Shown here: piece by piece, positions 20,806-38,824 of the stretch
Layout: the number at the start of each line of letters is the position of its first letter
Numbering within the stretch: the first letter of the stretch is position 1
Origin: Candidatus Crickella merdequi
GTDB lineage: Bacteria; Bacillota; Clostridia; Peptostreptococcales; Anaerovoracaceae
Assembly: GCA_018064645.1 (NCBI GenBank)
Contig: JAGHUT010000064.1
Span: forward strand, 3,965-67,964
Direction of reading: 5' to 3'
DNA length: 64,000 nucleotides
Notes under the pieces: model-generated
What the model saw: only the letters and a program-made list of their open reading frames with translations
Told to the model about the DNA's origin: nothing
Database searches by the model: none
Program-made: the position numbers and the translations under genes

Positions 20806-21930
20806 ATGAACATTATTAATTCAAGCAACACTTTAATAACGGTAATCGGAGCTTTCGGGCTGGCTGCTGTAATCGCTTTTGTGATGGCACCGGTCAGCAT
20901 TAAGGTTGCCCATAAGATTGGAGCAATTGATATTCCGAAGGATGAGAGAAGAATGCACAAGAAGCCGATTCCAAGATTTGGAGGACTGGCAATCTTTGCT
21001 GGAACCATGGTTTCAATGGGTCTTTTCGAGGGCGATAACGAGCTCATTCGAGTTGCAATGCTCGGCGGTGTTCTTATGTATCTTCTTGGAGCAGTTGACG
21101 ATGTTAAAAGTCTTTCTGCCCCTGTTAAGTTTGCCGGCCAGATGGCAATTGCTATTCTGATGTATGGTATGGGCATCAGAATCGGCTTCATTGCCAACTA
21201 TTTCGGTCCGGGAACTCTTAACCTGGGACTTGGTATAAGCTTCCTGATTACAATATTCTGGATTGTTGGAGTAACCAATGCAATTAATCTTATGGATGGA
21301 CTCGATGGTCTTGCAGGAGGAATAACAGCGATTATCGCACTTTTCCTGGCTTATGTTGCCTACATCCACGGAGATGAGATGGGAATGATTTCGGTTGGCA
21401 TCAGTCTTATGGCTCTTGCCGGCGGATGTGCGGGCTTCCTTCCATATAACTTCAATCCGGCGAAAACCTTTATGGGAGACAGCGGAGCTCTTTTCCTGGG
21501 ATATATGATCGCAGTAATGTCTGTAATATCACCGCTTAAGAGAGCGACGCTCGTTGCAGCACTTGTTCCTATCATGGCGCTTGCTATTCCGATCTTTGAT
21601 ACGCTTTTTGCAATTGTGAGACGTATCATCAGAAGAGAACATATTATGGCACCTGACAAGGGTCACATTCATCACAGGATAATGAGAACAGGCTTCGGTC
21701 AGAGAAGATCTGTACTTATCATATATGGAGTTGTTGGGATTATGGGTATGTCCGCAGTGCTTATCAGCCGAGAGCTGTACAAGGATGCAATTATTCTTGC
21801 TTTTATTGCGGCAATGTATTTAAGTGTAATTCTAGTTGAACAGAAGCCAAGGGAATATGAAAGCCCTAGCGACTGGATCAGAAAAGCAAAGCCAAAGACT
21901 GGTGAGTCAGAGTGGCAGAAGGAAGAGTAA
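20806..21930 (+). CDS. Polyprenyl-phosphate N-acetylhexosamine-1-phosphate transferase (WecA/TagO/MraY family, GT4)
   Basis: 374 aa polytopic membrane protein with the NAINLMDGLDGLAGG and FMGDSGALFLGY motifs of the MraY/WecA family. Confidence 0.85.
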   Translation: MNIINSSNTLITVIGAFGLAAVIAFVMAPVSIKVAHKIGAIDIPKDERRMHKKPIPRFGGLAIFAGTMVSMGLFEGDNELIRVAMLGGVLMYLLGAVDDVKSLSAPVKFAGQMAIAILMYGMGIRIGFIANYFGPGTLNLGLGISFLITIFWIVGVTNAINLMDGLDGLAGGITAIIALFLAYVAYIHGDEMGMISVGISLMALAGGCAGFLPYNFNPAKTFMGDSGALFLGYMIAVMSVISPLKRATLVAALVPIMALAIPIFDTLFAIVRRIIRREHIMAPDKGHIHHRIMRTGFGQRRSVLIIYGVVGIMGMSAVLISRELYKDAIILAFIAAMYLSVILVEQKPREYESPSDWIRKAKPKTGESEWQKEE

Positions 21931-21931
21931 G

Positions 21932-22702
21932 ATGTTTAAAGATGAATACAAGGCAATGGAAAATGCCGGAGTAGCGAAGGTCGCCCTGCTTGATAATAAT
22001 ATCAGAGCGTATATTGTATCTTCCCTCATGGCAGGTGCTTTTATCGGAATCGGTGTAATGCTCATGAGCACAGTTGGCGCCTATGCAGCAGGAACGCCTT
22101 ATGTGAAGCTTGCAATGGGTGTGGTGTTCAGCGTGGCGCTGTCGCTTGTAGTAATTGCCGGAGCAGAACTTTTCACGGGTAACAACATGGTGGTAATGGC
22201 CAGCGTTCTCAGAGGAAGAGTAACTGTCGGCAAGATGCTCAAACTGTGGATTATCTGCTTCATTGCAAACTGGATCGGTTCAATTATAGCAGCATGCGTG
22301 TTTACAGGTACCGGTCTTGCCAATGCAGATGTTGGATTATTTATTTCAAATGTTACAGCTACCAAGATGGCGGTTCCTGTGGGACAGCTGATCTGCAGAG
22401 GAATCCTTTGCAACTTCCTTGTTTGCCTGGCTGTATGGTGCGGATTCAGATGCAAGTCAGAAGCAGCAAAGCTTATCATGATAATCTGGTGCATCACATC
22501 ATTCGTAAGCTGCGGTTTTGAGCACAGTATTGCCAACATGACAATGCTAACTGTAGGAATGCTCAAAGCAAATAGCCTTGGAGTAGCAGGCGTGACAATT
22601 GGAGGATATTTTTACAATATTCTGACAGTTGCATTTGGCAATATAATCGGAGGAGCTCTTTGTGTAGCAATTCCATACGGAATCGTTTCCAAAGATAAAT
22701 AA
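21932..22702 (+). CDS. Formate/nitrite transporter (FNT) family channel
   Basis: ELFTGNNM and GFEHSIANM signatures. I place the start at ATG 21932, 1 nt after the upstream stop. The ORF-track start at 21836 would overlap the upstream gene by 95 nt. Confidence 0.85.
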   Translation: MFKDEYKAMENAGVAKVALLDNNIRAYIVSSLMAGAFIGIGVMLMSTVGAYAAGTPYVKLAMGVVFSVALSLVVIAGAELFTGNNMVVMASVLRGRVTVGKMLKLWIICFIANWIGSIIAACVFTGTGLANADVGLFISNVTATKMAVPVGQLICRGILCNFLVCLAVWCGFRCKSEAAKLIMIIWCITSFVSCGFEHSIANMTMLTVGMLKANSLGVAGVTIGGYFYNILTVAFGNIIGGALCVAIPYGIVSKDK

Positions 22703-25061: not shown

Positions 25062-25090
25062 TTGCCAAGAGGTTGACTCTGTGCTAACAT
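25062..25090 (+). promoter_or_regulatory. Candidate promoter of the nif-like/hyp/hyd operon
   Basis: -35 TTGCCA (25062-25067), 17-nt spacer, extended -10 TGcTAACAT (25082-25090). Located between the rpsR terminator and the leader. Confidence 0.4.
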
Positions 25091-25125
25091 CAGTTCATCT
25101 GAGATCGAAATATCGCATTGAGGTT

Positions 25126-25210
25126 GAAGATGCCAATAGAGATAAGAGAAACGACAGGGACAACTGTCGGTATTGCGGCATCTTCCAATTGGGAAGATGT
25201 TTTTTATTTT
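25126..25210 (+). promoter_or_regulatory. Riboswitch-like leader: closing helix mutually exclusive with an intrinsic terminator
   Basis: gaagatgcc (25126-25134) pairs with ggcatcttc (25177-25185) and encloses the hairpin gacag-ggacaa-ctgtc. The same 3' strand (catcttcc, 25179-25186) pairs with ggaagatg (25192-25199), followed by ttttttatttt (25200-25210). RBS and ATG follow at 25218-25231. Confidence 0.5.
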
Positions 25211-25228
25211 ACTGAGAAGGAGACAGAT

Positions 25229-25486
25229 ATGGAAGGTTACAGAGTGGCAATTCTCGGGATCATCATCGAAGAGATGGAGTCGGTTGCAGAAGTAAATGCG
25301 GTTCTTCACGAGTTCAACGAGTACATAATCGGAAGAATGGGAATTCCATACAAAACAAGAGGAATCAACGTCATCAGCATAGCAGTAGATGCTCCATGCG
25401 ATGCGATCAATACAATGGCAGGCAAGCTGGGCAAGCTTAGCGGAGTAAGTGCGAAGGCTGTTTATTCGAAGCTTTCACATGAATAG
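25229..25486 (+). CDS. TM1266-type small ACT-like protein (family annotated as putative iron-only hydrogenase system regulator)
   Basis: 85 aa from ATG 25229 (RBS gaaggag). MEGYRVAILGIIIEE..VNAVLHEFNEYIIGRMGIPY..INTMAGKLGKLSGVSAKAVYS matches my recollection of Thermotoga TM1266. The ORF-track start at 25118 would translate through the terminator hairpin. Confidence 0.6.
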   Translation: MEGYRVAILGIIIEEMESVAEVNAVLHEFNEYIIGRMGIPYKTRGINVISIAVDAPCDAINTMAGKLGKLSGVSAKAVYSKLSHE

Positions 25487-25501
25487 GCGAGGTTGGAGAC
25501 T

Positions 25502-26248
25502 ATGAGAAAAATCGCAATTTACGGCAAGGGTGGTATCGGCAAATCGACAATATGTTCTAATGTCGCGGCTGCTCTTGCAGAAAAAGGGCTCAAAGTCATG
25601 CAGATAGGCTGCGATCCGAAGGCGGATTCTACTTATGCTCTCAGACACGGAGAGCCGCTGGCTACAGTCCTTGATACAGTGAGAGTCAAAGGCAGCAGTT
25701 TTGACCTTGATGAGGTGGTACATGAGGGCTATGCCGGAACCATCTGTGTGGAGGCAGGAGGCCCTGTGCCGGGCGTTGGATGTGCAGGCAGGGGAATTAT
25801 CACTGCCCTGGAGAAAATCGACGAGAAGGGCGTATATGACCGATACGAGCCGGATGTGATTATATATGATGTTCTTGGAGATGTAGTCTGCGGAGGCTTT
25901 TCCATGCCGATGAGAGGCGGCTACGCAGAAGAGGTGTACATTGTAACCTCTGGTGAGAACATGGCAATTTATGCAGCTGCAAATATTGCAGTGGCAATCG
26001 ATAATTTCAAGGGCAGAGGCTATGCAAAGCTTGGCGGTCTCATCCTCAACAGAAGAGATGTGAGGAACGAAGATGCCAAAGTGAAGGAGCTTTGCGAAGA
26101 CCTTAATACATCCCTTATTGGTGACATCCATAGGAGCGAAACAGTTCTGGACGCAGAGGAGAAGAAGCAGACTGTACTGGAAGCTTTTCCAGAAAGCAAT
26201 CAGGCAGAGGCGTACAGAACGCTTGCAGAGATAATCTGGAGCAGATAG
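25502..26248 (+). CDS. NifH-like (nitrogenase iron protein family) ATPase, copy 1
   Basis: [15 protein letters not shown] Walker A. Both [4Fe-4S] ligand contexts are present ([12 protein letters not shown] and [12 protein letters not shown]). ATG 25502 follows ggag. The ORF-track start at 25493 is TTG. Confidence 0.9.
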   Translation: MRKIAIYGKGGIGKSTICSNVAAALAEKGLKVMQIGCDPKADSTYALRHGEPLATVLDTVRVKGSSFDLDEVVHEGYAGTICVEAGGPVPGVGCAGRGIITALEKIDEKGVYDRYEPDVIIYDVLGDVVCGGFSMPMRGGYAEEVYIVTSGENMAIYAAANIAVAIDNFKGRGYAKLGGLILNRRDVRNEDAKVKELCEDLNTSLIGDIHRSETVLDAEEKKQTVLEAFPESNQAEAYRTLAEIIWSR

Positions 26249-26250
26249 AA

Positions 26251-28809
26251 GTGACAGAAAGAAATATTAGAACAAGTGAATATGTGACCTTAAGAGATGG
26301 AAGTTTTCCGCTTCCTTTCGCACAGCAGCTTGAATTCAGCTCGCCGGCAAGAGGAACCTTGAATATTGTTCATACAGGCAATCTTATACCGGAAAGCCAT
26401 GAGATTTTTGTCTGTGCCAAGGGTTGCCTGCGAGGAGTAGTCCTGACAGCGGCAGAGGCCGGCACCATGGGCAGATACTCAGCACTGGAGATCAAGGAGG
26501 AGAATATTCTCAACGGTGACATGGAGACAATGATGATTGAAGGTGTTTCGGACATCATCGCCAAGCTCCCTTACAGACCGAGAGCAATTCTCTTGTATAT
26601 AAGCTGTCAGCATTTCTTTATGGCATATGACAGGGAGATGGTTTTTGAGGTGCTGAAAGACAGGTTCAGGGATATTGAGTTCGCAGACTGTTACATGATT
26701 CCGACCCTTCGCAAAAGCGGCATAACCCCGGATCAGAAGATGCGGATTCAGATGTACAGCATGCTTAAGCCAGCTGTTACAGATGAGTCGCAGATTAATC
26801 TTATGGGAAGCAATCATGCCATTGTGGACAGCTGTGAAATATATACGCTTCTTGAAAAAAGAGGCATGAGTCTCACATCAATTAATGACTGTGAATCCTT
26901 CGATGAATATCTTGATCTAGCCAGGGGCCGGCTTAACATTATATATGAGCCAATAGCTCTTATGGCGGCTGAGGATATGGAGAAGCGTCTTGGAATACCG
27001 TATGTGTATCTGCCAAATGTCTACAGAGCAGATGATATTGCAGACAATTACAGGCTTCTTGGAGAGGTTCTCGGCGAGGTGCTTGATGAAGAAGAACTGG
27101 CAAGGTCCTGCGAAAAAGCGAAGCTTGCAGTCAGGGAAACACTCGCGATGGTCGGAGATTCTCCGATTGCAGTAGACTATACTTTTGGCCCTAGGCTTCT
27201 CAATCTGGCAAGATTCCTGGCAGAAGAAGGCTTTAATGTAACGGACCTCTTCGCAGACGGATTTTTCCCCGAAGAAGAGAAGGACTGGTGCTGGCTCAAG
27301 GAGAATAGACCGGATATTATACTTCATCCTACCAGCAGAGCAGCAATGCGTTACGAGAAAGATATCAATCCAGGAGCGCTGGCACTTGGACAGAAAGCGG
27401 CCTGCTTCATGGGAACAGATAATTTCGTTAATGTCGCAGAGTGCGGAGGCTTCTTCGGCTATGACGGAATAGTGCAGATAATGAAGCTTCTGCAGGAGGC
27501 CTGCAGAGTCAGTAAGGATAGAGAGGTAATTGTTCAGAAGAAGGGAACTAAAGTCAGATCTCTTCTTGATGAGGCAGACAGTCTCTGCTGCCGTGAACAG
27601 CCAGAGAAGAAACTCGAGTCGACAGGCAATAATTATACAGCTGGACTTGTACCAACTTATTCATCCGATGAATTCGGAATCTGTTCGGCCCTGTATGAAC
27701 TTGGCGGAATGGTGGTAATGCACGATGCATCTGGATGCAACTCAACATATACAACACATGATGAGCCACGATGGTACAACCAGGAGAGCATGATATACAT
27801 CTCAGCAATCTCCGAAATGGAAGCAATTATGGGAGATGATGAGAAGCTCATCAAAGACATCTGCGATGCGGCAGAAGCATTGAAGCCTGAGTTCATAGCA
27901 ATTGTAGGAGCCCCTATTCCATACATGATAGGAACAGATTTTGATGCAATTGCCAATATCCTGGAGGAAAAGCTGGGAATTCCATGCGTAGGTTTCGATG
28001 CCAACGGAATGCAGAACTACACAAAAGGCGTTGCCATGGCAACAAGAATGCTTGTGGAGAGATTCACCGAAACGCCTGTGGAAAAAACTGTGGAAAAAAC
28101 TGTGGAAATGTCACAGACGTTCACAATTAACCTCCTTGGAGCAACTCCTCTTGATTTCGCTCTCAATGGAACTGTTGCTTCAATAAAGGAGTGGGCGAAG
28201 GAACATCAAATGGCTGTAAAGTGCAGTTTTTCAATGGATTCAAGCCTTGAAGAGATTAAAGAAGCAGCTTCAGCCGATGCAAATCTTGTTCTTACGTACG
28301 GTGGTCTGGCGGCAGCTAAACTGATGAAAAGCAAATTCGGCATACCATATACCTGTGGAGTACCATGTGGAAAACTTGGTGATAATCTTGCAAAAGAACT
28401 TCGCGGCAGCCTCTTGTCGGCGAACACCGACGAAGCAAAAGGCGCTGAAAGAATCAAAGTAGCTGTAATCGGTGAAGAGATAACAAGCCTGTCACTGGCA
28501 AGAGCTCTCGAAATTGAATACAACTTCGATGCACGAGTTCTGAGCGCAGCAGATACAGATAAGGTAATACTAAGAGAGAAGGACTATGCAGCTGAATCAG
28601 AGGATGCAATTATAAGAATCCTTGCAGAGCTGCAGCCGGCACTGGTCATTGCAGATCCGTTCTACCAGGCCATAGTGCCAAAGGAAATGGATTTCTACCC
28701 AAGACCGCACGAGGCCTTCTCGGGAAGAATATATGACGGACAGAATCAGAATCTGATCAACTGCAGTCTGAGAGAGAAGCTGTCCGGTTTGGAGAAATAC
28801 GATGCTTAA
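26251..28809 (+). CDS. Fused nitrogenase-component-1-like protein: NifD-like N-half and NifK-like C-half in one 852-aa polypeptide
   Basis: The N-half (about aa 1-430) is paralogous to 29572-30858; the shared segment is ..[14 protein letters not shown].. versus ..AAEDIAKRLEIPSI... The C-half (about aa 465-852) is paralogous to 30855-31922; the shared segment is [19 protein letters not shown] versus CDAGGCTGNVCGFDEPRWF. GTG start 2 nt after the upstream stop. Confidence 0.8.
28076..28109 (+). repeat. In-frame 12-bp tandem repeat (ctgtggaaaaaa, about 2.8 copies) encoding [10 protein letters not shown]
   Basis: Read directly: cctgtggaaaaaactgtggaaaaaactgtggaaatg. Confidence 0.9.
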
Positions 28810-29554
28810 GATAGCAGTTTACGGTAAAGGCGGAATAGGTAAATCAACAACAACAGCAAATCTCGCAGCAGCTTTTGCCAGTCTTGGCAAGAAAGTAATT
28901 CAGATTGGCTGTGATCCAAAGGCAGATTCAACAATGAACCTCCTTCACGGAAGCCCTGTTCAGTCAGTAATGGACTACATGAGAATTAATGATGATGAGC
29001 CGACAGAACTCAGTGAAATCGTCGAGGAAGGTTATGGCGGAGTGGTATGCATCGAGACAGGTGGACCTACACCGGGACTGGGATGCGCCGGCCGAGGAAT
29101 TATAACAACTTTTTCGCTTCTCGAGGACCTGGAGCTCTTCGAAACATATGAACCAGATGTTGTTCTTTACGACGTCCTTGGAGATGTAGTTTGCGGAGGC
29201 TTCGCAGCTCCTATCAGAGAGGGCTATGCAGAGAAGATTCTCATTGTTACATCAGGTGAAAAAATGGCGCTCTACGCAGCCAACAATATCTGCTCTGCGG
29301 TAAAGAATTTTGAAGACCGGGGATACGCAACGGTTCGAGGCGTAGTTCTCAACAGAAGAGCAGTAGAAAGAGAAGAAGAGAAGGTACAGGCTTTTGCAGA
29401 AGAACACGGCCTTGAGATTCTCGCAGATATTCCAAGAAGCAATGACATCATTCACTATGAGGACCAGGGAAAAACAGTTATAGAGGGAGACATTAATCTT
29501 CCTGTAAGTCAGAAGTATATTGACCTGGCAAAGAGGCTTCTTGAAGAACAATAA
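28802..29554 (+). CDS. NifH-like ATPase, copy 2
   Basis: [28 protein letters not shown] and [19 protein letters not shown] motifs. The ATG overlaps the end of the upstream gene by 8 nt. Confidence 0.9.
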
Positions 29555-29571
29555 ATCGTAAAGGTAATTAA

Positions 29572-30858
29572 ATGGACAACAAACAAGCTTATTACATCAG
29601 TGCAAAGGATCTTGCGGCGCGCGGCCTGGACAATATTCCTGACCAGCTGCAGTCCTCAAAGCACCTAATATACAGTTCGCCGGCGACTTTGTCCTTCAAC
29701 TCTCCCGGAGCGCAGGGTTTTGGTGTCAAAAGAGCAGGACTTGCTGTTCCAGGATCTGTAATGCTTCTTGTAGCTCCCGGCTGCTGCGGGCGTAATACCA
29801 CTATGCTGGCAGAGCTTGGAGACTATGCAGACAGATTCTACTATCTGCTCCAGGATGATACAGATATCATTACAGGTCGCCATCTGAACAGAATCCCGGA
29901 GGCGGTCAGGGAAGTTGTAGAGTTTCATAACCCTAAGCCAAGCTGCGTAATGATATGCATAACCTGCGTAGATGCACTTCTTGGAACAGATATGGACAGA
30001 GTCTGCCGCAAAGCATCAGCCGTTGCGGGCGTTCCGGTTCTTCCCTGCTACATGTATGCACTTACAAGGGAAGGCAGAGTGCCACCAATGACAGCTGTAA
30101 GAAAAACAGTCTATGCACTTCTTGAGAAGCGGAAGAAGAAGTCAACAACAGTTAATATTCTTGGACAGTTTGCTCCATACATGGATAACTGCGAGCTGTA
30201 TGACATTCTTCACAATCTGGGAGTAAAGAAGATTAACGAAATATCAAGATGTGCCGATTTTGAGGAATACATGGGAATGGCAGAAGCGAATTTTAACCTC
30301 GTGCTTAACCCTGAGACAAGACTTGCTGCAGAGGATATAGCGAAGCGCCTGGAGATTCCGTCAATAGAGTTAACAAGGCAGTACAGACTCGACAAGATTC
30401 ATAAGCAGTACCAGCTTCTCGGCGGAGCCCTCGGTGTAAATATTGACGACAGCAGGTGGATGAAAGAGACGGAAGAGTATATTGACGGCTTCAGGGAGAG
30501 ACACCCAGACCTGGAATTTGCCATTGGAGAGTGTCTCAATGCAGACTCTTTTGAGCTCGCCCTTGCACTTATAGGCTACGGATACAAGGTCAACGAAATT
30601 TACGGAACAGTGTCCGGTGAGAATTTCCCTTACATCCGGCAGCTTGCAAAGGTCAGCCCTGAGACAAGAATATACACTAATCTGGAGCCTACAATGCTGT
30701 ACTACGACTGCAGCGAGTGTAAGGCGGATATAACAATTGGAAAGGATGCAGAGTACTATCATCCTGATGCGCCTAATGTGCCATGGAACAGAGAAGTTCA
30801 GCCATTTGGCTACGCAGGTCTCAGAACTCTGCTTGAGGAAATAGAGGAAGCTATATGA
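29572..30858 (+). CDS. NifD/NifE-like nitrogenase-component-1-type protein (stand-alone)
   Basis: 428 aa. Cys motifs LVAPGCCGR, ICITCVDALLGTDMD and VLPCYMY. By-eye similarity to A. vinelandii NifD around NLV....(K/R)(Y/L)(G/E)IP. Confidence 0.75.
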   Translation: MDNKQAYYISAKDLAARGLDNIPDQLQSSKHLIYSSPATLSFNSPGAQGFGVKRAGLAVPGSVMLLVAPGCCGRNTTMLAELGDYADRFYYLLQDDTDIITGRHLNRIPEAVREVVEFHNPKPSCVMICITCVDALLGTDMDRVCRKASAVAGVPVLPCYMYALTREGRVPPMTAVRKTVYALLEKRKKKSTTVNILGQFAPYMDNCELYDILHNLGVKKINEISRCADFEEYMGMAEANFNLVLNPETRLAAEDIAKRLEIPSIELTRQYRLDKIHKQYQLLGGALGVNIDDSRWMKETEEYIDGFRERHPDLEFAIGECLNADSFELALALIGYGYKVNEIYGTVSGENFPYIRQLAKVSPETRIYTNLEPTMLYYDCSECKADITIGKDAEYYHPDAPNVPWNREVQPFGYAGLRTLLEEIEEAI

Positions 30859-31922
30859 AAGGTTTACTCAAAGTACTGTCGCCATTCGCACCGGACCAGT
30901 CAGGCGCAGCGGCAGTATTCTACGACATGGGATGCATAACAGTAATATGCGATGCAGGAGGATGTACAGGTAATGTGTGCGGCTTCGATGAGCCAAGATG
31001 GTTCAGGAATGCCAAGCCGATTTTCAGTGCAGGTCTTCGTGACATGGATGCCATTCTCGGACGAGATGACAGACTTGTAGACAAGCTGAGACTGGTTGCA
31101 GAGAAGACAGATGCAGATTTCGCTGCGATTATCGGAACCCCGGTTCCAGCAGTAATCGCGACGGATTTTCGCGCACTGAAGAGACTGGCTGAGAAGCGCT
31201 GCGGAATGCCGGTCGTAACCTGCGAATGTACAGGAACAAGACTGTATGATATTGGAGAAGAAGAGGCATATATGCAGCTGGTAAAAACTTTTGCAGATAC
31301 TTCTGCAGAGGCTTCCGGCAAATCGGGAATACTGGGTGTTCTTGGTGTTACTCCCCTCAATATATCCAGCATTGATGGAGATGAACTGATCCGTCAGCAT
31401 TATAAGAGTCAGGGCTATGATGAGGTTTACTGCTACGGCATGGGTGCCGGCCTTGATGAACTGAAGCTGGCCGGCTGTGCAGAGAAGAACATTGTAATTG
31501 CTCCTTCGGGTCTTAAGGCTGCACGATATCTTGAGAAGAAATTCGGAACGCCATATGAGCTGCACTACCCGCTTATGCCTGTCAATGTTGCAGAAGCAAT
31601 CAAAGGCATTGAGAATGCCAGAGTGTGCATCATTCACCAGCAGATAGCTGCAGAGGCTGTAAGGCAGCAGCTAGAGCAGAAAGGTTGTGATGTGACAGTT
31701 GCATCTTTCTTCGAAATGAAGAAGGACCTTAGAAGAGCGCAGGATGTTGCTCTCGAAACAGAAGAAGATTATCAGAAGCTCATCGAAGAAGGCGGCTTCG
31801 ATTATGTAATTGCAGACCAGCTCTTCAGAAGAGCCGTAGCTGCAGACTGCTATAAAGAGTGGATACCTATGACACATTTCGCGGTATCCGGCAAGCTTGA
31901 GGAGGCTCAATGCGCACTGTAA
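30855..31922 (+). CDS. NifK/NifN-like nitrogenase-component-1-type protein (stand-alone)
   Basis: 355 aa with an ATGA overlap to the upstream gene. VICDAGGCTGNVCGFDEPRWF and IIGTPVPAVIATDF segments are paralogous to the C-half of 26251-28809. Confidence 0.7.
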   Translation: MKGLLKVLSPFAPDQSGAAAVFYDMGCITVICDAGGCTGNVCGFDEPRWFRNAKPIFSAGLRDMDAILGRDDRLVDKLRLVAEKTDADFAAIIGTPVPAVIATDFRALKRLAEKRCGMPVVTCECTGTRLYDIGEEEAYMQLVKTFADTSAEASGKSGILGVLGVTPLNISSIDGDELIRQHYKSQGYDEVYCYGMGAGLDELKLAGCAEKNIVIAPSGLKAARYLEKKFGTPYELHYPLMPVNVAEAIKGIENARVCIIHQQIAAEAVRQQLEQKGCDVTVASFFEMKKDLRRAQDVALETEEDYQKLIEEGGFDYVIADQLFRRAVAADCYKEWIPMTHFAVSGKLEEAQCAL

Positions 31923-34240
31923 GAATCTGTGTTTATGGAATAGTGCAGGGAGTAGGCTTCAGACCTTTTGTCAGCAGACTGGCAGACAGAATCGGCATTA
32001 AAGGAAGTGTGGCAAACAGAGGATCGTATGTGGAGATTTTTGCTGCCGGCGAAGAAGAACAGCTTGATTTATTCAAGTCGCTTCTCCGGCAGGAAGCACC
32101 TGAACGTTCGGCAATACTCAAGGTTACAGAGAGAACTGTTGAGCCTGGCGGATACGAAGACTTCCAGATAATAGAAAGTGAGCACGAAGAGGGAGATATC
32201 TTTGTTTCGCCTGATATTGCCACATGCCCAAAATGCAGAAGAGAGCTTTACGACCCTAACAACCGTCGATACATGCATCCTTTTATCAACTGTACGGCAT
32301 GCGGCCCAAGGCTTACCATTCTCGATGCAATGCCGTACGACCGTCAGAGAACAAGTATGAAGGCTTTTCCGATGTGTCCCGAATGTGAGTACGAATACAC
32401 GCATGCAGAGACGCGCAGGTATGATGCTCAGCCGGTATGCTGCAATGACTGCGGCCCGGAGGTGTATATTATCGGAAGTGAAATCAGCGGCAGAGCTGCC
32501 ATCACTTATGCGAGACAGGCGATCATTGATGGTAAGATTATTGCCATCAAGGGAATTGGCGGATTCCATCTCTGCTGCGATGCGACTAACGAAGAAGCAG
32601 TTGCAAGACTGAGAACTCTCAAGCGCAGACCGGCGAAGCCTTTTGCAGTAATGGCAAGAGACCTTGAGACTGTAGAGCGAGAATGCCAGCTTCCGGGGCA
32701 GAACATCAGGGATATTCTCGATGGACATCAGAAGCCGATAATTCTTCTTAAGCGTAAAAACGACAGCAGGCTGGCTCCATCAGTAGCTCCCGACAATCCA
32801 AAGATTGGAATGATGCTGCCTTACGCACCGGTACAGATGCTGCTTTTTGACTACAACGACGGCCTTGAGATGACAACAGACTGTTTCGTTATGACAAGCG
32901 GCAATGTCAGCGGAGCGCCAATCTGCAGAACAGACGAGGACGCAATTAAGGAGCTGTCTGGCTTCTGCGATATAATGCTTTCGCATAACAGAACCATAAG
33001 GCTTCGCGCTGATGATTCCGTAATGGATATCTACCGCGGTGAGCCATACATGATAAGGCGTTCAAGAGGCTATGCGCCACTGCCTGTGATGACAGAGCAG
33101 AATGTCAGAGGAAGCGTGCTTGCTGTAGGAGGAGAGCTTAAGAACACCTTCTGCATCGGCAAGGATCAGCTTCTCTACGAGTCGCCATATGTTGGTGATA
33201 TGGAGGATCTGCGCACAGTGCAGGCTCTTGAGGAATCGATAAAAAGAATGGCGGAGCTGCTCGAGACGTCACCGACAATTGTGGCGTGCGATCTTCATCC
33301 GAAGTACAATACTGGTTTTGTGGCTGAGAGACAGGGGCTTCCTGTTATGAAACTTCAGCATCATTATGCTCATATTCTGTCATGTATGGCGGAGAACGAT
33401 TACAGTGATAGAGTAATAGGACTTTCTCTTGATGGAACTGGCTACGGAACAGACGGAACTATCTGGGGCGGAGAACTGCTCTCCTGCGACCTTGATGGCT
33501 TCGAAAGAATTGGCTGTATAGAAGCTTTCGACCAGGTCGGCGGTGATGCTTCAGCAAAAGAAGGCTGGAGAATAGCGGCTTCAATGATCAACTCCATATA
33601 CGGAGAGGAAGCTTCGGAGGTAGTGACGAAGCTCGGCCTTTGCGATGAGAACGCCAGAGCTCTTATTGCAAGAATGGCTGAAAGAGGTATAAACACCGTA
33701 AAGTCCACAAGCGCGGGAAGACTCTTTGACGCTGTCAGCGCAATTCTGGGTGTTCGAAAGAGCTCAAGCTTCGAAGGCGAAGCTGCAACAACTCTTATGT
33801 TCAGAGCCCAGGCCTTCGCAGAGACAGCTGAAGCACTGCCGGAGGTACCTTCGTTCTGCGGAATAGCCCTTGAGGATTTCTGCAATATAAGAACGACGGA
33901 GCTGGTTCGATACCTTATCGAAGAGAAACTCAAAATTCAGGATGAAGAGGGCAATCTGAGCATAGAAGAACAGGGAAGACTAGCCTATGTTTTTCATGAA
34001 GCCTTTGCCGAGATGTGCGCAGAAGCAGCAATCTGGGCATGCAGCAGAGAAGAAATAGCGACTGCAGCGCTCTCCGGAGGAGTTTTCCAGAACACACTTC
34101 TCCTGGAAGGAGTTGAATCGCGACTTGAGAATAATGGAATCAAAGTATTGAGGCATCATATGATTCCGCCTAATGATGGAGGCATTGCCCTCGGTCAGGC
34201 GGCAGCAGCGATGCATAAGATAAACAGGGAGGACAAGTGA
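31910..34240 (+). CDS. hypF: Carbamoyltransferase HypF
   Basis: 776 aa. Acylphosphatase domain (VYGIVQGVGFRPFV). Two Zn-finger pairs (CPKCRRELYDPNNRRYMHPFINCTACGPR; CPECEYEYTHAETRRYDAQPVCCNDCGP). YrdC-like and Kae1-like C-terminal domains. RBS gaggagg. Confidence 0.92.
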   Translation: MRTVRICVYGIVQGVGFRPFVSRLADRIGIKGSVANRGSYVEIFAAGEEEQLDLFKSLLRQEAPERSAILKVTERTVEPGGYEDFQIIESEHEEGDIFVSPDIATCPKCRRELYDPNNRRYMHPFINCTACGPRLTILDAMPYDRQRTSMKAFPMCPECEYEYTHAETRRYDAQPVCCNDCGPEVYIIGSEISGRAAITYARQAIIDGKIIAIKGIGGFHLCCDATNEEAVARLRTLKRRPAKPFAVMARDLETVERECQLPGQNIRDILDGHQKPIILLKRKNDSRLAPSVAPDNPKIGMMLPYAPVQMLLFDYNDGLEMTTDCFVMTSGNVSGAPICRTDEDAIKELSGFCDIMLSHNRTIRLRADDSVMDIYRGEPYMIRRSRGYAPLPVMTEQNVRGSVLAVGGELKNTFCIGKDQLLYESPYVGDMEDLRTVQALEESIKRMAELLETSPTIVACDLHPKYNTGFVAERQGLPVMKLQHHYAHILSCMAENDYSDRVIGLSLDGTGYGTDGTIWGGELLSCDLDGFERIGCIEAFDQVGGDASAKEGWRIAASMINSIYGEEASEVVTKLGLCDENARALIARMAERGINTVKSTSAGRLFDAVSAILGVRKSSSFEGEAATTLMFRAQAFAETAEALPEVPSFCGIALEDFCNIRTTELVRYLIEEKLKIQDEEGNLSIEEQGRLAYVFHEAFAEMCAEAAIWACSREEIATAALSGGVFQNTLLLEGVESRLENNGIKVLRHHMIPPNDGGIALGQAAAAMHKINREDK

Positions 34241-34241
34241 T

Positions 34242-34448
34242 ATGTGCGTAGGATTAGCGGCTAAAGTAGTAGGAATCAAGGATGGCGTTGCTGTTGTTGA
34301 TGCATCAGGCGCAAAGAGAGAGGTGGCTGCAGAGCTCATCGAGGAGCTTGAGCCAGGCGATTTCGTAATGGTTCATGCAGGCATTGCCATCGCAAAGATT
34401 ACTGCAGATGATACAGAAGAGACAGATGAACTGATGGAGATGCTTTAA
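34242..34448 (+). CDS. hypC: HypC/HybG/HupF-family hydrogenase maturation chaperone
   Basis: 68 aa with the N-terminal MCVG motif (essential Cys2) and the typical DFVMVHAGIAI segment. Confidence 0.85.
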   Translation: MCVGLAAKVVGIKDGVAVVDASGAKREVAAELIEELEPGDFVMVHAGIAIAKITADDTEETDELMEML

Positions 34449-35491
34449 TGGAAGAGAAGAAACTTACAGCACGTGAGATCATCGAGAGCTACGATGGTCC
34501 GAAGCTTAGAATAATGGAGGTGTGCGGAACGCATACGCATGAGATTTTTCGCCTTGGAATCAGAAGTCTGCTCCCAGAGAATGTTGAGCTGATTTCCGGA
34601 CCGGGCTGCCCTGTTTGCGTAACGCCTGTAGGCTTCATTGATATGGCCCTTCAGCTGGCCCTCGAGAAGGAGTGCGTAATCTGTACTTTTGGAGACCTTA
34701 TCAGAGTTCCGGGTTCAGAGATGAGTCTTGCTGACGCGAGAGCTAAGGGTGCAGTTGTAAAAATCGTATATACTGCTACAGACGCTCTCGACTATGCGAA
34801 GGAGAATCCTGATAAGCAGGTGGTTTTCCTGTCTGTCGGTTTCGAGACAACAACTCCTGGAAGCTGTCTGGCAGTTAAGAAGGCTAAGGAAGAAGGGGTT
34901 CAGAACTTCTCGATTCTTACTGCCAACAAGACAATGCCTAATGCATATCAGGCACTTAAGGGAAGCGCAGATGCGTTCCTCTATCCAGGACATGTTAACG
35001 CAATCACAGGAGAGGATGACTGCCGCAAGCTGGCCGAAGAAGGAGTATCAGGCGTAATCGCCGGTTTTACCGCCAAGGAACTTCTGACAGCCCTTGCAGT
35101 GACAATAAGAAAATGCCAGCAGGGCGAGCCTTTCTTCGTTAACTGCTATCCAAGGGTAGTTACTGAAAAGGGAAACATCCCTTCAAAGAAAATTATCGAA
35201 GAGATTATGGAGCCATGCGATTCAATCTGGAGAGGCCTTGGAAACATTTCGATGTCAGGTCTGAAGCTTAGAGAAGAGTACGCCGCGTTCGATGCACAGC
35301 GGAAGTTCGACATTCCTGAGACAGAGGGAACACCTAATCCTGGATGCCGCTGCGGTGAGGTTCTTCAGGGCAAGTGCAAGCCTGCAGATTGCCCTCTGTT
35401 CGGCAAGGTATGCACACCGCTTCATCCGGTAGGTGCATGTATGGTATCAAATGAAGGTTCCTGCTCTGCGTACTATCAGTACCAGATGTAG
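34448..35491 (+). CDS. hypD: Hydrogenase maturation Fe-S protein HypD
   Basis: CGTHTHEI, GPGCPVCVTP, GFETT and PGHVNAITG motifs, plus the C-terminal Cys cluster CRCGEVLQGKCKPADCPLFGKVCTPLHPVGACMVSNEGSC. Confidence 0.92.
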   Translation: MEEKKLTAREIIESYDGPKLRIMEVCGTHTHEIFRLGIRSLLPENVELISGPGCPVCVTPVGFIDMALQLALEKECVICTFGDLIRVPGSEMSLADARAKGAVVKIVYTATDALDYAKENPDKQVVFLSVGFETTTPGSCLAVKKAKEEGVQNFSILTANKTMPNAYQALKGSADAFLYPGHVNAITGEDDCRKLAEEGVSGVIAGFTAKELLTALAVTIRKCQQGEPFFVNCYPRVVTEKGNIPSKKIIEEIMEPCDSIWRGLGNISMSGLKLREEYAAFDAQRKFDIPETEGTPNPGCRCGEVLQGKCKPADCPLFGKVCTPLHPVGACMVSNEGSCSAYYQYQM

Positions 35492-35511
35492 ACGATATAG
35501 GAGAGAGTATT

Positions 35512-36516
35512 ATGAGTGAATATGTTAAGCTGGCCCACGGTGCCGGCGGCAAGCAGACATCAGAGCTGATTGAAAAAGTCTTCAAGGCGCATTTTGCTAA
35601 TCCTGAGTTTACTGCTGACGATGCAGCAGTACTGAATGTTGGAGATGGAAGAATCGCTATGTCGACAGATGGTTTTATCGTGTCGCCATTCGAGTTCCCG
35701 GGCGGCAACATCGGCAAACTTTCTATTTGCGGAACGGTAAATGACCTGGCATGCATGGGAGCACAGCCTCTTTATATGACCTGTGCTTTCGTAATAGAGG
35801 AAGGTTTTCCTCTTGAGAAGCTGGAGATGATTGCAGCTTCAATGGAGAAGACCGCTGCAGAGGTTGGTGTTAAGATTGTTGCCGGCGATACTAAGGTTGC
35901 AGGCAAGGGACAGGTAGACAATGTCTTCATAACAACAACAGGCGTAGGCAGGCTGACTGAGGGCTTTGCTACTTCAGGAGCTTTTGCCAAGCCTGGTGAC
36001 AAAATCATCGTTACAGGTGATGTAGGCCGTCATGGCTGCACAATCCTTCTTGAGAGAGAAGATCTGGGAATTGAGGCAGATATCAAGAGTGACTGTGCGC
36101 CTCTCTGGAACACAGTTAAAGCGATGATGGATGCAACTTCAGACATCCACGTAATAAGAGATGCTACAAGAGGCGGTGTTGGTACTGTCCTTTATGAAAT
36201 TGCGGCTGAGAGCAATGTTGGTGTAAGGCTTGAAGCTACACAGGTTCCAGTTGATCCAGCTGTTGCAGGTGTATGTGGAATGCTGGGCCTTGACCCGCTC
36301 TATCTTGCCAACGAGGGAACAATGGTTGTTATTGCTCCAGCAGAGTCTGCAGACAAGGTGCTCGAGGCACTTCGCGGCGACAAGTATGGACAGAAGGCGG
36401 CTGTTATTGGCGAGATTACAGATGTAATGCCGGGAAGCGTAGTAGTAAGAACAGAGATTGGAACAGAGACACTTCTTCCACAGCCAGGAGGAGAGCTCCT
36501 TCCAAGAATCTGCTAA
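35512..36516 (+). CDS. hypE: Carbamoyl dehydratase HypE
   Basis: 334 aa with a PurM-like fold, an N-terminal LAHGAGGK segment and the invariant C-terminal PRIC motif. Confidence 0.92.
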   Translation: MSEYVKLAHGAGGKQTSELIEKVFKAHFANPEFTADDAAVLNVGDGRIAMSTDGFIVSPFEFPGGNIGKLSICGTVNDLACMGAQPLYMTCAFVIEEGFPLEKLEMIAASMEKTAAEVGVKIVAGDTKVAGKGQVDNVFITTTGVGRLTEGFATSGAFAKPGDKIIVTGDVGRHGCTILLEREDLGIEADIKSDCAPLWNTVKAMMDATSDIHVIRDATRGGVGTVLYEIAAESNVGVRLEATQVPVDPAVAGVCGMLGLDPLYLANEGTMVVIAPAESADKVLEALRGDKYGQKAAVIGEITDVMPGSVVVRTEIGTETLLPQPGGELLPRIC

Positions 36517-36526
36517 GGTAGACATA

Positions 36527-37582
36527 ATGACTGATTTATATAAGCTTGTTGACAAGCTGGAAGAGGAGAAAGAACTTTCCCTTGAGGAATGGACAAGGCT
36601 CATCGAAGGGCAGTCCTCTGAGATAAGTGAATATGTTTTTTCCAAGGCACGCAAGGCACGCGAACCCTTTTACGGCCACGAAGTGTATGTGCGAGGTCTT
36701 ATCGAGATAAGTAACATCTGCAGAAATGACTGCATCTACTGCGGTATTCGCTGCAGCAATGTCAAAGTGAATCGATACAGACTGACGAAGGAGGAGATCC
36801 TTTCCTGCTGCAGATCCGGCTGGGAAATGGGCTTCAGGACTTTTGTCATGCAGGGCGGCGAGGATCCATATTACACCGACGAGGTGCTTTGCGATATTAT
36901 CGCTGCGATTCGCGAGGAGTTCCCGGAGTGTGCAATAACCCTTTCTGTTGGAGAGCGCTCTAAAGAGAGCTATCGCAAACTTAAGGAGGCGGGTGCAGAG
37001 CGTTACCTTCTGAGGCACGAGACGGCAAATGAAGAGCACTATAGAATGCTGCATCCAGAGAACCTGAGTCTTGCTGTCCGCAAAGAGTGCCTTTTCAATC
37101 TGCGCGAGCTGGGCTACCAGGTGGGAGCAGGGTTCATGGTTGGTGCACCATATCAGACGGCGAGGCATCTTGCGGAGGATATGATTTTCCTTAAAGAGCT
37201 TAATCCTGCTATGGTTGGAATCGGACCATTCATTCCGCATCATGATACGCCTTTTGCAGATATGAAGGCAGGCACCCTTGAGCAGACAATATACCTGCTC
37301 GGGCTCATAAGACTGATGCTTCCAAAAGTTCTTCTTCCAGCGACAACAGCTCTTGGAACAAGTGATCCTCTGGGCCGCGAGAAGGGAATGGAGGCAGGTG
37401 CCAATGTAGTAATGCCGAATCTTTCACCGACAGAAGTCCGCAAGGACTACCTGCTGTACGACAACAAAATCTGCGTGAACGAAGAGGCCGCCGAGAACCT
37501 CAGGAGTCTGAAGGCTCGTATGGAGGCTATCGGATACATGGTTGTATGCGACCGCGGCGATTCAAAGAATATGGAGAACTAA
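36527..37582 (+). CDS. hydE: [FeFe]-hydrogenase H-cluster radical-SAM maturase HydE
   Basis: Radical-SAM CRNDCIYCGIR motif in a BioB-like fold, with the HydE-typical segments MQGGEDPYY and AMVGIGPFIPHHDTPF. ATG 36527 avoids overlap with hypE; the ORF-track start is 36458. Confidence 0.85.
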   Translation: MTDLYKLVDKLEEEKELSLEEWTRLIEGQSSEISEYVFSKARKAREPFYGHEVYVRGLIEISNICRNDCIYCGIRCSNVKVNRYRLTKEEILSCCRSGWEMGFRTFVMQGGEDPYYTDEVLCDIIAAIREEFPECAITLSVGERSKESYRKLKEAGAERYLLRHETANEEHYRMLHPENLSLAVRKECLFNLRELGYQVGAGFMVGAPYQTARHLAEDMIFLKELNPAMVGIGPFIPHHDTPFADMKAGTLEQTIYLLGLIRLMLPKVLLPATTALGTSDPLGREKGMEAGANVVMPNLSPTEVRKDYLLYDNKICVNEEAAENLRSLKARMEAIGYMVVCDRGDSKNMEN

Positions 37583-38785
37583 ATGAGTATGAACAACACG
37601 CCAAGTGGCGAAAGAATACATATCGGATTATTCGGCAAGCGCAACGCCGGCAAATCGAGCCTCGTCAATGCTCTGACAGGACAGAGCCTTGCCATCGTTT
37701 CGGATGTGCTGGGAACAACAACGGATCCTGTGCTCAAGGCAATGGAGCTTCTGCCGCTCGGTCCGGTTGTAATGATAGATACACCGGGCCTCGATGACGA
37801 AGGTGAGCTGGGGGAGCTGCGTATTCGTAAGGCGTATCAGATGCTGAACAAGTCGGATATCGCGCTTCTCGTAGTTGATGCTGCCTGCGGAATGACTGCT
37901 GAGGATAATGCAATTCTTGAGAGAATCCTCGGCAAAAATCTTCCTTATGTCGTAGTATTCAACAAGTGCGATGCTATCGATGAAGAAAGACGCTTCGCAT
38001 TGTCGGAAGAGCTGGGTGAGAAGAAACATATTTTTGTAAGCGCAGCCGACAGAGAGGGAATATATGAACTTAAAGAACTCATAGGTCACCTGATCCCTTC
38101 CGAATCGGAGAGGGTTCTGATTAGAGATATAATTGACCCATCCGACATAATCGTTCTTGTTGTACCTATTGATAAGGCGGCGCCTAAGGGAAGGCTTATC
38201 CTGCCGCAGCAGATGGTTATCAGAGATATTCTTGATGCAGATGCTGTTGCAGTAGTTGCCAAGGAGGATGAGCTGTCATCTGTACTTGCCAGAATCGGCG
38301 AAAAACCGAAACTGGTAGTAACAGATAGTCAGGTTTTCGGCAGAGTGTCGAAGGATACTCCAGCGGATATCTATCTTACGTCTTTTTCCATCCTGATGGC
38401 TCGTTATAAAGGCGACCTGGAGCTGGTTGTTGAGGGAGCACATCAGCTTGACCAGCTTGACGATGGGGACACAATTCTCATCGCAGAGGGATGCACTCAT
38501 CACAGACAGTGCGGCGACATCGGAACAGAGAAACTGCCGGCATGGATTCTTAAGCATAGCGGCAAGAATGTAAAGTTCGAGTTCGTAAGCGGAACGGAAT
38601 TCCCTGACGATCTTAGTAAATACAGACTGATCGTTCACTGCGGCGCATGCACCCTCAACGAGAAGGAGATGCAGTATCGCCAGAAGTGCGCCGTTGACGC
38701 AGGAATTCCAATTACAAATTATGGAACAGCAATCGCACATATGAATGGAATTCTCAAGAGAAGTCTGGAGATTTTCTGCAAATAG
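37583..38785 (+). CDS. hydF: [FeFe]-hydrogenase maturation GTPase/scaffold HydF
   Basis: GTPase P-loop GKRNAGKSSLVNALTG and DTPG. C-terminal cluster motif EGCTHH...VHCGACTLN (CxHx(n)HCxxC). Confidence 0.9.
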   Translation: MSMNNTPSGERIHIGLFGKRNAGKSSLVNALTGQSLAIVSDVLGTTTDPVLKAMELLPLGPVVMIDTPGLDDEGELGELRIRKAYQMLNKSDIALLVVDAACGMTAEDNAILERILGKNLPYVVVFNKCDAIDEERRFALSEELGEKKHIFVSAADREGIYELKELIGHLIPSESERVLIRDIIDPSDIIVLVVPIDKAAPKGRLILPQQMVIRDILDADAVAVVAKEDELSSVLARIGEKPKLVVTDSQVFGRVSKDTPADIYLTSFSILMARYKGDLELVVEGAHQLDQLDDGDTILIAEGCTHHRQCGDIGTEKLPAWILKHSGKNVKFEFVSGTEFPDDLSKYRLIVHCGACTLNEKEMQYRQKCAVDAGIPITNYGTAIAHMNGILKRSLEIFCK

Positions 38786-38794: not shown

Positions 38795-38824
38795 AAAAGC
38801 AGTCTTGTTTGAAGACTGCTTTTG
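38795..38824. terminator. Bidirectional rho-independent terminator between hydF and tenA
   Basis: aaaagcagtctt-gtttg-aagactgctttt, with A/T runs on both sides and convergent genes. Confidence 0.85.

Follow-up and report, generated by a model that had tools for sequence, protein, structure and literature searches.

A widespread operon joining two nitrogenase-like protein sets with HypFCDE, HydE and HydF: a possible variant of the H-cluster maturation operon

Background

Why should nitrogenase-like proteins, [NiFe]-type hydrogenase maturases and [FeFe]-type hydrogenase maturases be encoded together in one operon? The question is raised by a contig of a metagenome-assembled genome of the gut bacterium Candidatus Crickella merdequi (Anaerovoracaceae, Peptostreptococcales; JAGHUT010000064.1), of which we analysed a stretch of 64,000 nucleotides, here called the window. 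Within it, 12 closely packed open reading frames (ORFs) on the + strand (25229-38785) encode a TM1266-like protein, two sets of nitrogenase-like (Nfl) proteins, HypFCDE, HydE and HydF. We find that this Nfl operon is real, conserved and widespread, and that it has been noticed once and never characterised. It may be a variant of the H-cluster maturation operon, in which two paralogous NifEN-like, ATP-driven scaffolds together with HypFCDE supply an iron-CO/CN unit, either replacing HydG or working alongside it; we consider this quite possible, if somewhat short of probable.

The original prediction made for this locus held that no described system encodes the three machineries as one unit. That claim stands in part: in 2012 Dos Santos et al. 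devoted one sentence and a supplementary figure to an association (PMC3464626) that is almost certainly the same system, but that report has no module structure, HydG-slot observation, leader, distribution or experiments. We found no experimental work on this cluster, no later characterisation, and nothing in the literature beyond that report. A July 2026 review of nitrogenase-like systems makes no mention of Hyp or Hyd (PMC13474568). A 2022 survey of Clostridium acetogens records HypCDEF without HypAB, as well as a duplicated HypCDE set in C. carboxidivorans, and draws no connection to Nif-like genes; the species concerned have a group 1a [NiFe] hydrogenase (PMC9431212).

Organization of the Nfl operon

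The genes follow the order TM1266-like, NflH1, fused NflD1K1 (here DK1), NflH2, NflD2, NflK2, HypF, HypC, HypD, HypE, HydE, HydF. The features of the transcription unit, with profile scores in bits and model cut-offs where these apply, are:

25062-25090 (+), sigma-70-like promoter, TTGCCA-17-TAACAT with extended TG; a consensus match only, which puts the transcript start at the leader motif
25096-25134 (+), leader motif of two direct repeats, CATCTGAGATCGAAAT ... ATTGAGGTTGAAGATGCC, whose 3' end is the predicted antiterminator strand
25177-25211 (+), predicted intrinsic terminator of the leader, GGCATCTTCC-loop-GGAAGATG plus T-run, mutually exclusive with the antiterminator
25229-25486 (+), TM1266-like small ACT-fold protein (PF21699, 107 bits; TIGR03959, 111 against a cut-off of 61)
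25493-26248 (+), NflH1, NifH-like ATPase / [4Fe-4S] reductase, module A (Fer4_NifH, 298 bits)
26251-28809 (+), fused NflD1-NflK1, NifEN-like component 1, module A (two Oxidored_nitro stretches; 852 aa)
28802-29554 (+), NflH2, second NifH-like ATPase, module B (Fer4_NifH, 312 bits)
29572-30858 (+), NflD2, NifE-like subunit, module B (Oxidored_nitro; NifE-type ligand segment ICITCVDALLGTDMDRVC)
30855-31922 (+), NflK2, NifN/K-like subunit, module B (Oxidored_nitro, 72 bits)
31910-34240 (+), HypF carbamoyltransferase (TIGR00143, 738 against 466; all five domains)
34242-34448 (+), HypC chaperone (PF01455; TIGR00074, 61 against 48)
34448-35491 (+), HypD scaffold (TIGR00075, 410 against 193)
35512-36516 (+), HypE (TIGR02124, 426 against 252)
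36527-37582 (+), HydE radical-SAM maturase (TIGR03956, 574 against 255)
37583-38785 (+), HydF GTPase scaffold (TIGR03918, 567 against 326)
38797-38824 (+), operon terminator, hairpin and U-tract; bidirectional, also serving the convergent tenA

The ORFs, their junctions and the family assignments of all twelve genes agree with the original prediction, as do the diagnostic motifs it named, each of which was found again. Junctions span from a 13-nt overlap (NflK2/HypF) to a 20-nt gap, and include an 8-nt overlap (DK1/NflH2), ATGA (NflD2/NflK2), TAATG (HypC/HypD) and a stop codon abutting a start codon (HydE/HydF). The exception is the start of HydE: the listed TTG at 36458 would overlap HypE by 59 nt, and the ATG at 36527, 10 nt past HypE, is the likely real start. 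A single leader and a single terminator had also been proposed, and we found a conserved leader upstream, a downstream hairpin (-24.5 kcal/mol, z = -4.2; none of 200 shuffles was as stable) followed by a U-tract, and no terminator-like site on the + strand inside the operon. As far as they can be read from the sequence, the transcription signals fit a single unit. In public annotation, NflH2 (MBQ0005312.1) is an 'AAA family ATPase' and the D/K proteins are 'nitrogenase component 1', labels so generic that automated annotation hides the Nfl system.

Conservation and modular architecture

We scanned pattern-matched stretches of a one-genome-per-species collection with a profile of DK1 and obtained relatives in at least 584 of 599, that is, in at least about 580 species-level genomes. 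The gene set occurs in Lachnospiraceae, Oscillospiraceae, Anaerovoracaceae, Clostridium, Negativicutes and Coriobacteriaceae; matches outside the Clostridia include Coriobacteriaceae, Veillonellaceae and Selenomonas, and the cultured strains among all matches include Clostridium muellerianum P21, Ruminococcus sp. YE71, Lachnospiraceae NE2001 and G41, and Sarcina sp. DSM 11001. Neighbourhoods were examined by tblastn of the twelve window proteins against 80 fetched loci, with some counts taken on the 40 loci of at least 20 kb (a view of ±10 kb). Across the 80 loci the same gene set is kept, while its order is shuffled between taxa and the flanks are unrelated. Among the 40 large loci, 34 carry all of NflH2/D2/K2 and HypFCDE, 30 carry TM1266 and 23 carry HydE or HydF; HydE is present in 33 and HydF in 27 of all 80. 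The cluster has no conserved metabolic or substrate-related gene.

These neighbourhoods bear directly on the simplest alternative, namely that three unrelated gene sets happen to lie side by side in one genome. All that speaks for it is that each family has a separate, well-known role. The same set recurs, reordered and between unrelated flanks, in dozens of genera, under a common leader and with a single terminator; the linkage is therefore not due to chance, and the absence of conserved linkage that the original prediction had named as telling against it is not what we see. We regard fortuitous juxtaposition as extremely improbable and effectively excluded, and on these gene neighbourhoods the three machineries appear to be one functional unit.

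The cluster is built from two modules. Module B, NflH2-NflD2-NflK2-HypF-C-D-E, is always contiguous and collinear, whereas module A comprises the TM1266-like gene, NflH1, NflD1 and NflK1, often with HydE and/or HydF. NflH2 is the most conserved component (median identity across loci 73%) and lies always directly upstream of NflD2. Hyp-type loci, with NflH2-D2-K2-HypFCDE, make up 53 of the 80; another 16, which we call importer-type, lack module B and Hyp and encode in their stead a FecCD permease, a Peripla_BP_2 binding protein and an ABC ATPase, and no locus combines the two. The D1 sequences of importer-type loci form one clade nested inside the Hyp-type diversity. The importer ATPase carries a C-terminal TM1266-like domain (PF21699, 68 bits; for example L005, 7750-9075), a fusion present in L005, L062, L064, L067, L069, L071, L072, L074-L077 and L081. 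The presence of this domain on a transporter ATPase implies that TM1266 is a small-ligand-sensing domain, and the TM1266-like protein of the operon is probably a ligand sensor or regulator. Its family assignment is secure, since the cut-offs are passed and the gene stands in a hyd context in many loci (adjoining HydE, HydF or HydG).

The fusion of D1 and K1 seen in the window is a minority form, found in five loci, with the two split in 71 of 77. In about 30 loci the split genes overlap, by 4-19 nt; where they do not, the two share a reading frame in 36 of 42 cases, and the separating stop codons are TAA, TAG or TGA without bias (L002-L081; the equivalent position in the window is about 27570-27640). 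The lack of bias rules out selenocysteine or programmed read-through as a means of joining D1 to K1; the pattern suggests repeated fission or fusion of one ORF.

Relationship of the Nfl proteins to nitrogenase and its relatives

To which branch of the nitrogenase superfamily do the Nfl proteins belong? The two NifH-like and three Oxidored_nitro proteins (one of them with two domains) all pass Pfam thresholds and miss every NCBIfam cut-off tried (nifH, CfbC, BchL/X, nifD/K/E/N, BchB and CfbD). Both NflH proteins have the Walker A motif GKGGIGKS and the two cluster cysteines (Cys97/Cys133 in NflH1, Cys95/Cys131 in NflH2). NflH1 reaches 330 on the nifH model (cut-off 394), and the pair score 324 and 304 on CfbC (402), 195 and 213 on BchL (345), and 160 and 201 on BchX (331); against PDB sequences they match NifH and MarH alike at about 248 bits and BchL at 144-175 bits. 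The D/K proteins are far more distant. On nifD, DK1 and D2 score 57 and 23 against a cut-off of 654, and on the alpha subfamily model 67 and 33 against 486; on nifE, DK1, D2 and K2 score 103, 69 and 42 against 505; the values for nifN, CfbD (TIGR03282) and BchB are 21 against 327, 34 against 268 and 56 against 490. Structures of MarD (9d9u/9fmg) are matched at only 61 bits by the DK1 profile and 22 bits by D2, and MarK by K2 at 35 bits.

Judged by these curated cut-offs and PDB scores, the Nfl proteins lie outside nitrogenase proper (NifHDK/VnfHDGK/AnfHDGK, by the D/K cut-offs), the NifEN maturase (by the nifE and nifN equivalog cut-offs), CfbCD and DPOR/COR. They are likewise set apart from MarHDK, given the low MarD and MarK scores, no MarB/NifB and no sulfur genes nearby, and on this evidence membership of these families is rejected. 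With CfbCD, DPOR/COR, MarHDK, IsrHDK and the Group VI Nfl proteins they share the combination of an ATP-dependent NifH-like reductase with a D(K)-like component that seems to lack FeMo-co ligands (PMC13474568), and DPOR plus COR offer a parallel for two paralogous systems in one pathway; they differ in falling below all curated cut-offs and in their unique gene context. The Group VI Nfl of Elusimicrobia, which are linked to genes for B12-binding and HemN-type radical SAM proteins, were set aside because their gene context differs.

A cryptic nitrogenase that fixes N2 might be suspected from the NifH-like proteins, which reach about 250 bits against NifH structures. It is hard to reconcile with D/K scores of 23-103 bits on the nifD and nifE models (cut-offs 505-654), with 13-20% identity to MoFe proteins, with FeMo-co ligand positions that do not appear to be conserved, or with the lack of any NifB-like radical SAM protein in the window or the loci. 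The probability of nitrogen fixation is close to nil, and we treat it as effectively excluded.

The best match, weak as it is, is to NifEN. The profile of DK1 and the sequence of D2 both find NifE/NifEN first, and an AlphaFold (AF2) model of DK1 (pLDDT 83, pTM 0.82) matches most closely the naturally fused GmNifEN (PDB 9i0g; E = 5e-23), followed by NifEN, MoFe proteins and DPOR at 13-20% identity. Like NifEN, the Nfl system has one NifH-like ATPase per D/K pair, D-K fusions, and cysteines at the positions of NifE Cys124 and of the NifN 'HGxxGC' motif: the NifE-like D2 segment TCVDALLGTDMDRVC puts C132 at the NifE Cys124 / NifD Cys154 ligand position, and K1 and K2 share the signature DA(S/G)GC...DEPRW at the HGxxGC ligand position of NifN/NifK. 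Residues conserved across the loci are C71, C72, C129, C132 and C145 in NflD2; C55, C59, C119, H121, C478, H491, C496 and H503 in DK1; and C32, C37 and C42 in NflK2. Unlike NifEN, the Nfl proteins have extra invariant interface cysteines (CC, CxxC, Cx4C) beside the ligand positions (C71/C72 and C129/C132 in D2, C37/C42 in K2, C55/C59 in D1), which suggests a site richer than a plain [4Fe-4S] cluster. The operon also differs in having no NifB, NifDK or NifX, its partners being Hyp and Hyd proteins.

The two sets are themselves related. NflH1 and NflH2 are 52% identical, and D1/D2 (hhalign E = 5e-82) and K1/K2 (E = 2e-77) are each mutual closest relatives, so that the cluster holds two paralogous H-D-K systems.

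Hyp and Hyd proteins

HypF, HypC, HypD and HypE all pass equivalog or subfamily cut-offs and retain catalytic motifs: two CxxC..CxxC zinc fingers in HypF, a Met-Cys start in HypC (Cys2 kept), CGTHTH, GPGCPVC, GFETT and a C-terminal Cys cluster in HypD, and a C-terminal PRIC in HypE. In this they resemble the [NiFe] maturation branch, but the remainder of that branch is missing. As had been predicted, our searches found no HydG, NifB, HypA/HypB, [NiFe] large or small subunit, or endopeptidase in the 64-kb window, and no [NiFe] large-subunit-like or HypB-like ORF in 1.5 Mb of loci (85 sources). The locus thus does not encode a complete [NiFe]-hydrogenase system; HypA, HypB, the endopeptidase and the subunits were not found in these Nfl loci, and the Hyp genes always stand behind NflH2-D2-K2 in the operon.

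HydE (motif CRNDCIYC, CX3CX2C) and HydF (a GTPase P-loop and CTH...HCGAC, CxH...HCxxC) pass the H-cluster maturase equivalog cut-offs. The HydE of the window is 59% identical to its counterpart in a canonical operon with HydG. HydF sequences from canonical operons fall within the diversity of the Nfl-linked HydF, and canonical HydE sequences fall within or beside that of the Nfl-linked HydE. This rules out a specialised paralogue family, and by their sequences the Nfl-linked HydE and HydF look to be ordinary orthologues. A search of the 80 Nfl loci and the window by HydE phmmer and with a genuine HydG probe found no HydG, so neither the window nor any of these loci holds a canonical maturation operon with HydG beside HydE and HydF. 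Gaps between duplicated TM1266 genes were considered as a place for HydG; their genes proved to be the FecCD permease and the ABC ATPase with its TM1266-like domain.

Leader RNA and the HydG slot

If HydE and HydF are ordinary, is the rest of the operon that of a hyd operon? The leader offers an answer. It consists of a -10 box, two direct repeats (consensus ATCTGAGATyGAAAT-N4-8-ATTGAGATnGAAGATGCG) and a terminator with a 5' arm (CGCATCTT) that complements the end of the second repeat, and is conserved across genera. All 18 instances of the motif lie on the coding strand, 88-375 nt upstream of a TM1266-like gene, with a -10 box 7-10 nt before the motif in many loci besides the window. In an alignment of 18 leaders the antiterminator helix is 98% paired, compared with 40-70% in slid controls, and the terminator helix is 96% paired, with compensatory changes at four pairs (none of 500 shuffles reaches the observed value). 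We conclude that the leader with its GAGAUNGAA-type repeats is, by these pairing patterns, a predicted antiterminator/terminator switch. Rfam gave no match at the gathering score or at E <= 1, which rules out a known riboswitch; by analogy with HutP/TRAP, the leader could be a binding site for the TM1266 protein, or it could be a riboswitch. Leaders occur in the window (25096-25211) and in L038, L040, L041, L043, L045, L046, L048, L049, L055, L059, L062, L064, L072, L073, L075, L077, L081, L150, L187 and L205; in L072 the motif occurs a second time, immediately ahead of the permease gene.

The leader precedes the TM1266-like gene not only in Nfl-type operons but also in canonical HydE-HydG-HydF operons. 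A metagenome scan for the leader core returned mostly chance matches and two genuine new leaders; one of the two, L150, reads leader-TM1266-HydE-HydG (HydG N-terminus 207 bits, E = 3e-61). A search for HydG homologues gave for the most part fragments at contig ends, but also L205, a 257-kb contig with a full canonical TM1266-HydE-HydG-HydF operon and a GC-shifted, still self-complementary version of the leader. The HydG of L205 (GCA_964261755.1, 10001-11311) is called as three pieces (150, 159 and 146 aa), which are probably the product of assembly frameshifts rather than a pseudogene.

In Nfl loci HydE is followed directly by NflH1 or D1 in 21 of 31 cases, and the importer-type order is HydE-NflH1-D1-K1-SBP-HydF, where SBP is a substrate-binding protein. 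Lying between HydE and HydF, the Nfl genes thus occupy the slot that HydG has in the canonical operon. Compared with that operon (TM1266-like, HydE, HydG, HydF, often aspA), Nfl loci share the leader, the TM1266-like first gene and the orthologous HydE and HydF, and differ in that HydG is missing and its slot holds either two H-D-K sets with HypFCDE or one set with an ABC importer. In some loci the likeness extends to an aspA-like gene: a Lyase_1 gene (aspartate-ammonia-lyase/fumarase family) lies directly after HydE or HydF in five.

L031, 15144-16508, Lyase_1 gene
L066, 15071-16435, Lyase_1 gene
L071, 9236-10576, Lyase_1 gene
L075, 12596-13972, Lyase_1 gene
L081, 12977-14311, Lyase_1 gene

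An association of aspA with hydF is typical of hyd operons and is tied to dithiomethylamine synthesis (PMC11736057).

Such an arrangement could also reflect no more than the co-regulation of genes for metal and H2 metabolism. The Nfl proteins would then be conventional Fe-S reductases acting on a small molecule or metal chelate, perhaps an imported one, with Hyp serving a [NiFe] hydrogenase elsewhere in the genome and HydE and HydF serving [FeFe] hydrogenases with a HydG encoded elsewhere. Importer-type loci, which pair module A with a FecCD/Peripla_BP_2 chelate transporter, are in keeping with this, as are the similar ABC-linked Nif-like genes noted by Dos Santos et al. in 2012 and the fact that the characterised nitrogenase-like enzymes except NifEN are all reductases (PMC13474568). 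Clostridium acetogens do have a [NiFe] hydrogenase, and the only HypF of C. carboxidivorans belongs to its second Hyp set; yet the same organism keeps a separate HypCDE with HypAB beside that hydrogenase (PMC9431212), and the second set is therefore probably dedicated to something else. Mere co-regulation also sits poorly with the strict contiguity of NflH2-D2-K2-HypF-C-D-E in 53 loci from several phyla without HypA/B, endopeptidase or [NiFe] subunits, with the mutual exclusion of Hyp-type and importer-type loci, and with the insertion of Nfl genes between HydE and HydF. We consider it distinctly unlikely.

A probable client for the maturases

What, then, would the maturases act upon? A conventional client of HydE and HydF, overlooked in the original prediction, lies 6 kb from them:

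44965-46407 (-), monomeric group B [FeFe] hydrogenase, outside the operon (TIGR04105, 490 against a cut-off of 450)

Its H-cluster motifs (SSCCP, GPCTAKK and EGMACDGGC) are variant but complete, and it is likely to be a client of HydE and HydF. A host [FeFe] hydrogenase is thus a further point in common with canonical hyd operons. A tRNA gene (46948-47020, -) adjoins the hydrogenase gene. Across the loci, an [FeFe] hydrogenase gene adjoins the cluster in only two of 80, so the two are not tightly linked.

This lack of linkage is one reason to ask whether the end user is encoded within the cluster. NflD1K1 with NflH1 might form a nitrogenase-like, ATP-driven enzyme of a new kind, whose cofactor, an iron cluster with CO/CN ligands, is built by HypFCDE on NflD2K2/NflH2 and finished by HydE and HydF, much as NifEN feeds NifDK. 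The presence of two paralogous H-D-K systems recalls NifHDK with NifEN and BchLNB with BchXYZ; of the D proteins, D2 is closer to NifE, and a separate Cys/His set is conserved in D1 and K1. Module A, moreover, is the constant core, and the exchange of module B and Hyp for an importer would fit an enzyme with a cofactor supply or salvage system. Against this, conserved genes of substrate transport or metabolism are missing nearby, HydF has no known client besides HydA, the leader and TM1266 belong to the regulatory frame of hyd maturation operons, and neither D protein seems to have a suitable residue at the NifE Cys250 / NifD Cys275 cofactor-ligand position (Y/E in D1 and N in D2, as read from sequence alignments rather than structures). 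Both the enzyme itself and this way of building its cofactor seem to us unlikely, though worth keeping in view.

A possible variant of the hyd maturation operon

We therefore return to the reading of the cluster as an H-cluster maturation operon whose iron-CO/CN unit comes from Hyp and Nfl proteins. We favour it because the linkage is conserved and the Hyp-type and importer-type loci are mutually exclusive; because the leader and TM1266 frame is common to HydG operons (L150, L205), with Nfl genes in the HydG slot; because Nfl loci have no HydG, ordinary HydE and HydF, and in five cases an aspA-like gene after HydE/HydF; because the D/K proteins best match NifEN, a maturation scaffold, and have no metabolic neighbours; and because the host has an H-cluster-competent [FeFe] hydrogenase, while 1.5 Mb of loci hold no [NiFe] subunit or HypB.

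The frame would be that of a normal hyd operon (leader, TM1266-like sensor, ordinary HydE and HydF), with the place of HydG filled by nine genes. HypF and HypE would make cyanide from carbamoyl phosphate, and HypC and HypD would assemble an Fe(CN)2(CO)-type unit, steps that are established chemistry of these families. NflD2K2, whose subunit interface is rich in Cys, may receive this unit and act as a NifEN-like scaffold powered by the ATPase/reductase NflH2; the product may pass on to the paralogous NflD1K1/NflH1 pair. From this product HydE and HydF would then make the [2Fe] subcluster with its dithiomethylamine bridge and supply it to [FeFe] hydrogenases, the group B enzyme among them. In the derived lineage a chelate-type ABC importer would replace module B and Hyp, which suggests that the intermediate, or its iron, can alternatively be imported. 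The analysis shows the gene content, its linkage and modules, the paralogy, the NifEN-like fold, the leader switch and the frame shared with a HydG operon; we infer all chemistry on Nfl proteins, which way the intermediates are passed, and which enzyme receives the product in the end. The HydG-independent route put forward in the original prediction thus gains from the position of the Nfl genes, in the HydG slot under the same leader, while its chemistry keeps the standing of an inference; its central idea is strengthened, not proven.

Several observations weigh against this interpretation. To our knowledge, almost all organisms that have [FeFe] hydrogenases also have HydG; the Nfl/Hyp route may therefore supplement HydG instead of replacing it, or have nothing to do with HydA. 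The product of HypCD, Fe(CN)2(CO), differs in its CN:CO ratio from the HydG synthon, Fe(CO)2(CN). Importer-type loci have no Hyp genes within 10 kb, leaving their source of CN and CO unexplained; in 17 of the 40 large loci neither HydE nor HydF lies within ±10 kb; and the [FeFe] hydrogenase gene is, as said, rarely adjacent. The argument from the HydG slot rests on two canonical operons (L150 and L205) and general knowledge, and in the Clostridium acetogens, which are among the relatives, these Hyp proteins could serve the [NiFe] hydrogenase that those species possess (PMC9431212).

Other features of the window

The following features lie elsewhere in the window:

8700-14103 and 15737-20800 (+), a run of CWB2 cell-wall-anchored proteins, including two papain-family proteases and one GH25 lysozyme; typical of Peptostreptococcales surface layers
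14837-15576 (+), IS3-type transposase in two overlapping ORFs (HTH_21, rve integrase core), probably frameshifted or a remnant
21836-22702 (+), formate/nitrite transporter family gene, 2.5 kb upstream of the operon, with a helix-turn-helix regulator gene and rpsF-ssb-rpsR between
53104-53210 (+), thiamine pyrophosphate (TPP) riboswitch (67 bits), upstream of thiamine salvage genes (ThiW, HK-family thiazole kinase, Phos_pyr_kin)
62088-63233 (+), CobW/HypB/UreG-family (COG0523-type) GTPase of 381 aa, a putative metallochaperone and by motif not a HypB

Implications

There is a substantial chance that the Nfl operon hides new cofactor chemistry. Three unrelated routes to Fe-CO/CN cofactors are known to us, namely Hyp for [NiFe], HydEFG for [FeFe] and Hcg for [Fe] hydrogenases; if the Nfl scaffolds stand in for HydG, theirs would be a fourth, hybrid assembly route. 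Were NflD1K1 instead the end user, it would represent a new class of metalloenzyme, one that unites the chemistry of nitrogenase with that of hydrogenase and is widespread in gut and rumen anaerobes. The leader and the TM1266 protein are a candidate new regulatory RNA/protein pair for hydrogenase maturation. There is also a practical consequence for genome interpretation, as in many annotated genomes such nifH-like genes are counted as markers of diazotrophy and such hyp genes as evidence of [NiFe] hydrogenase, and both inferences would mislead for the Nfl cluster.

A compact operon of 12 genes brings long-standing questions within reach of experiment, among them where CO originates in anaerobic Hyp-type maturation and whether tyrosine cleavage can be bypassed in H-cluster synthesis. 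If true, the proposed role would give a first function to a large uncharacterised nitrogenase-like group, present in at least about 580 species of gut, rumen and acetogenic anaerobes, and would link the evolution of nitrogenase-cofactor assembly with that of hydrogenase-cofactor assembly.

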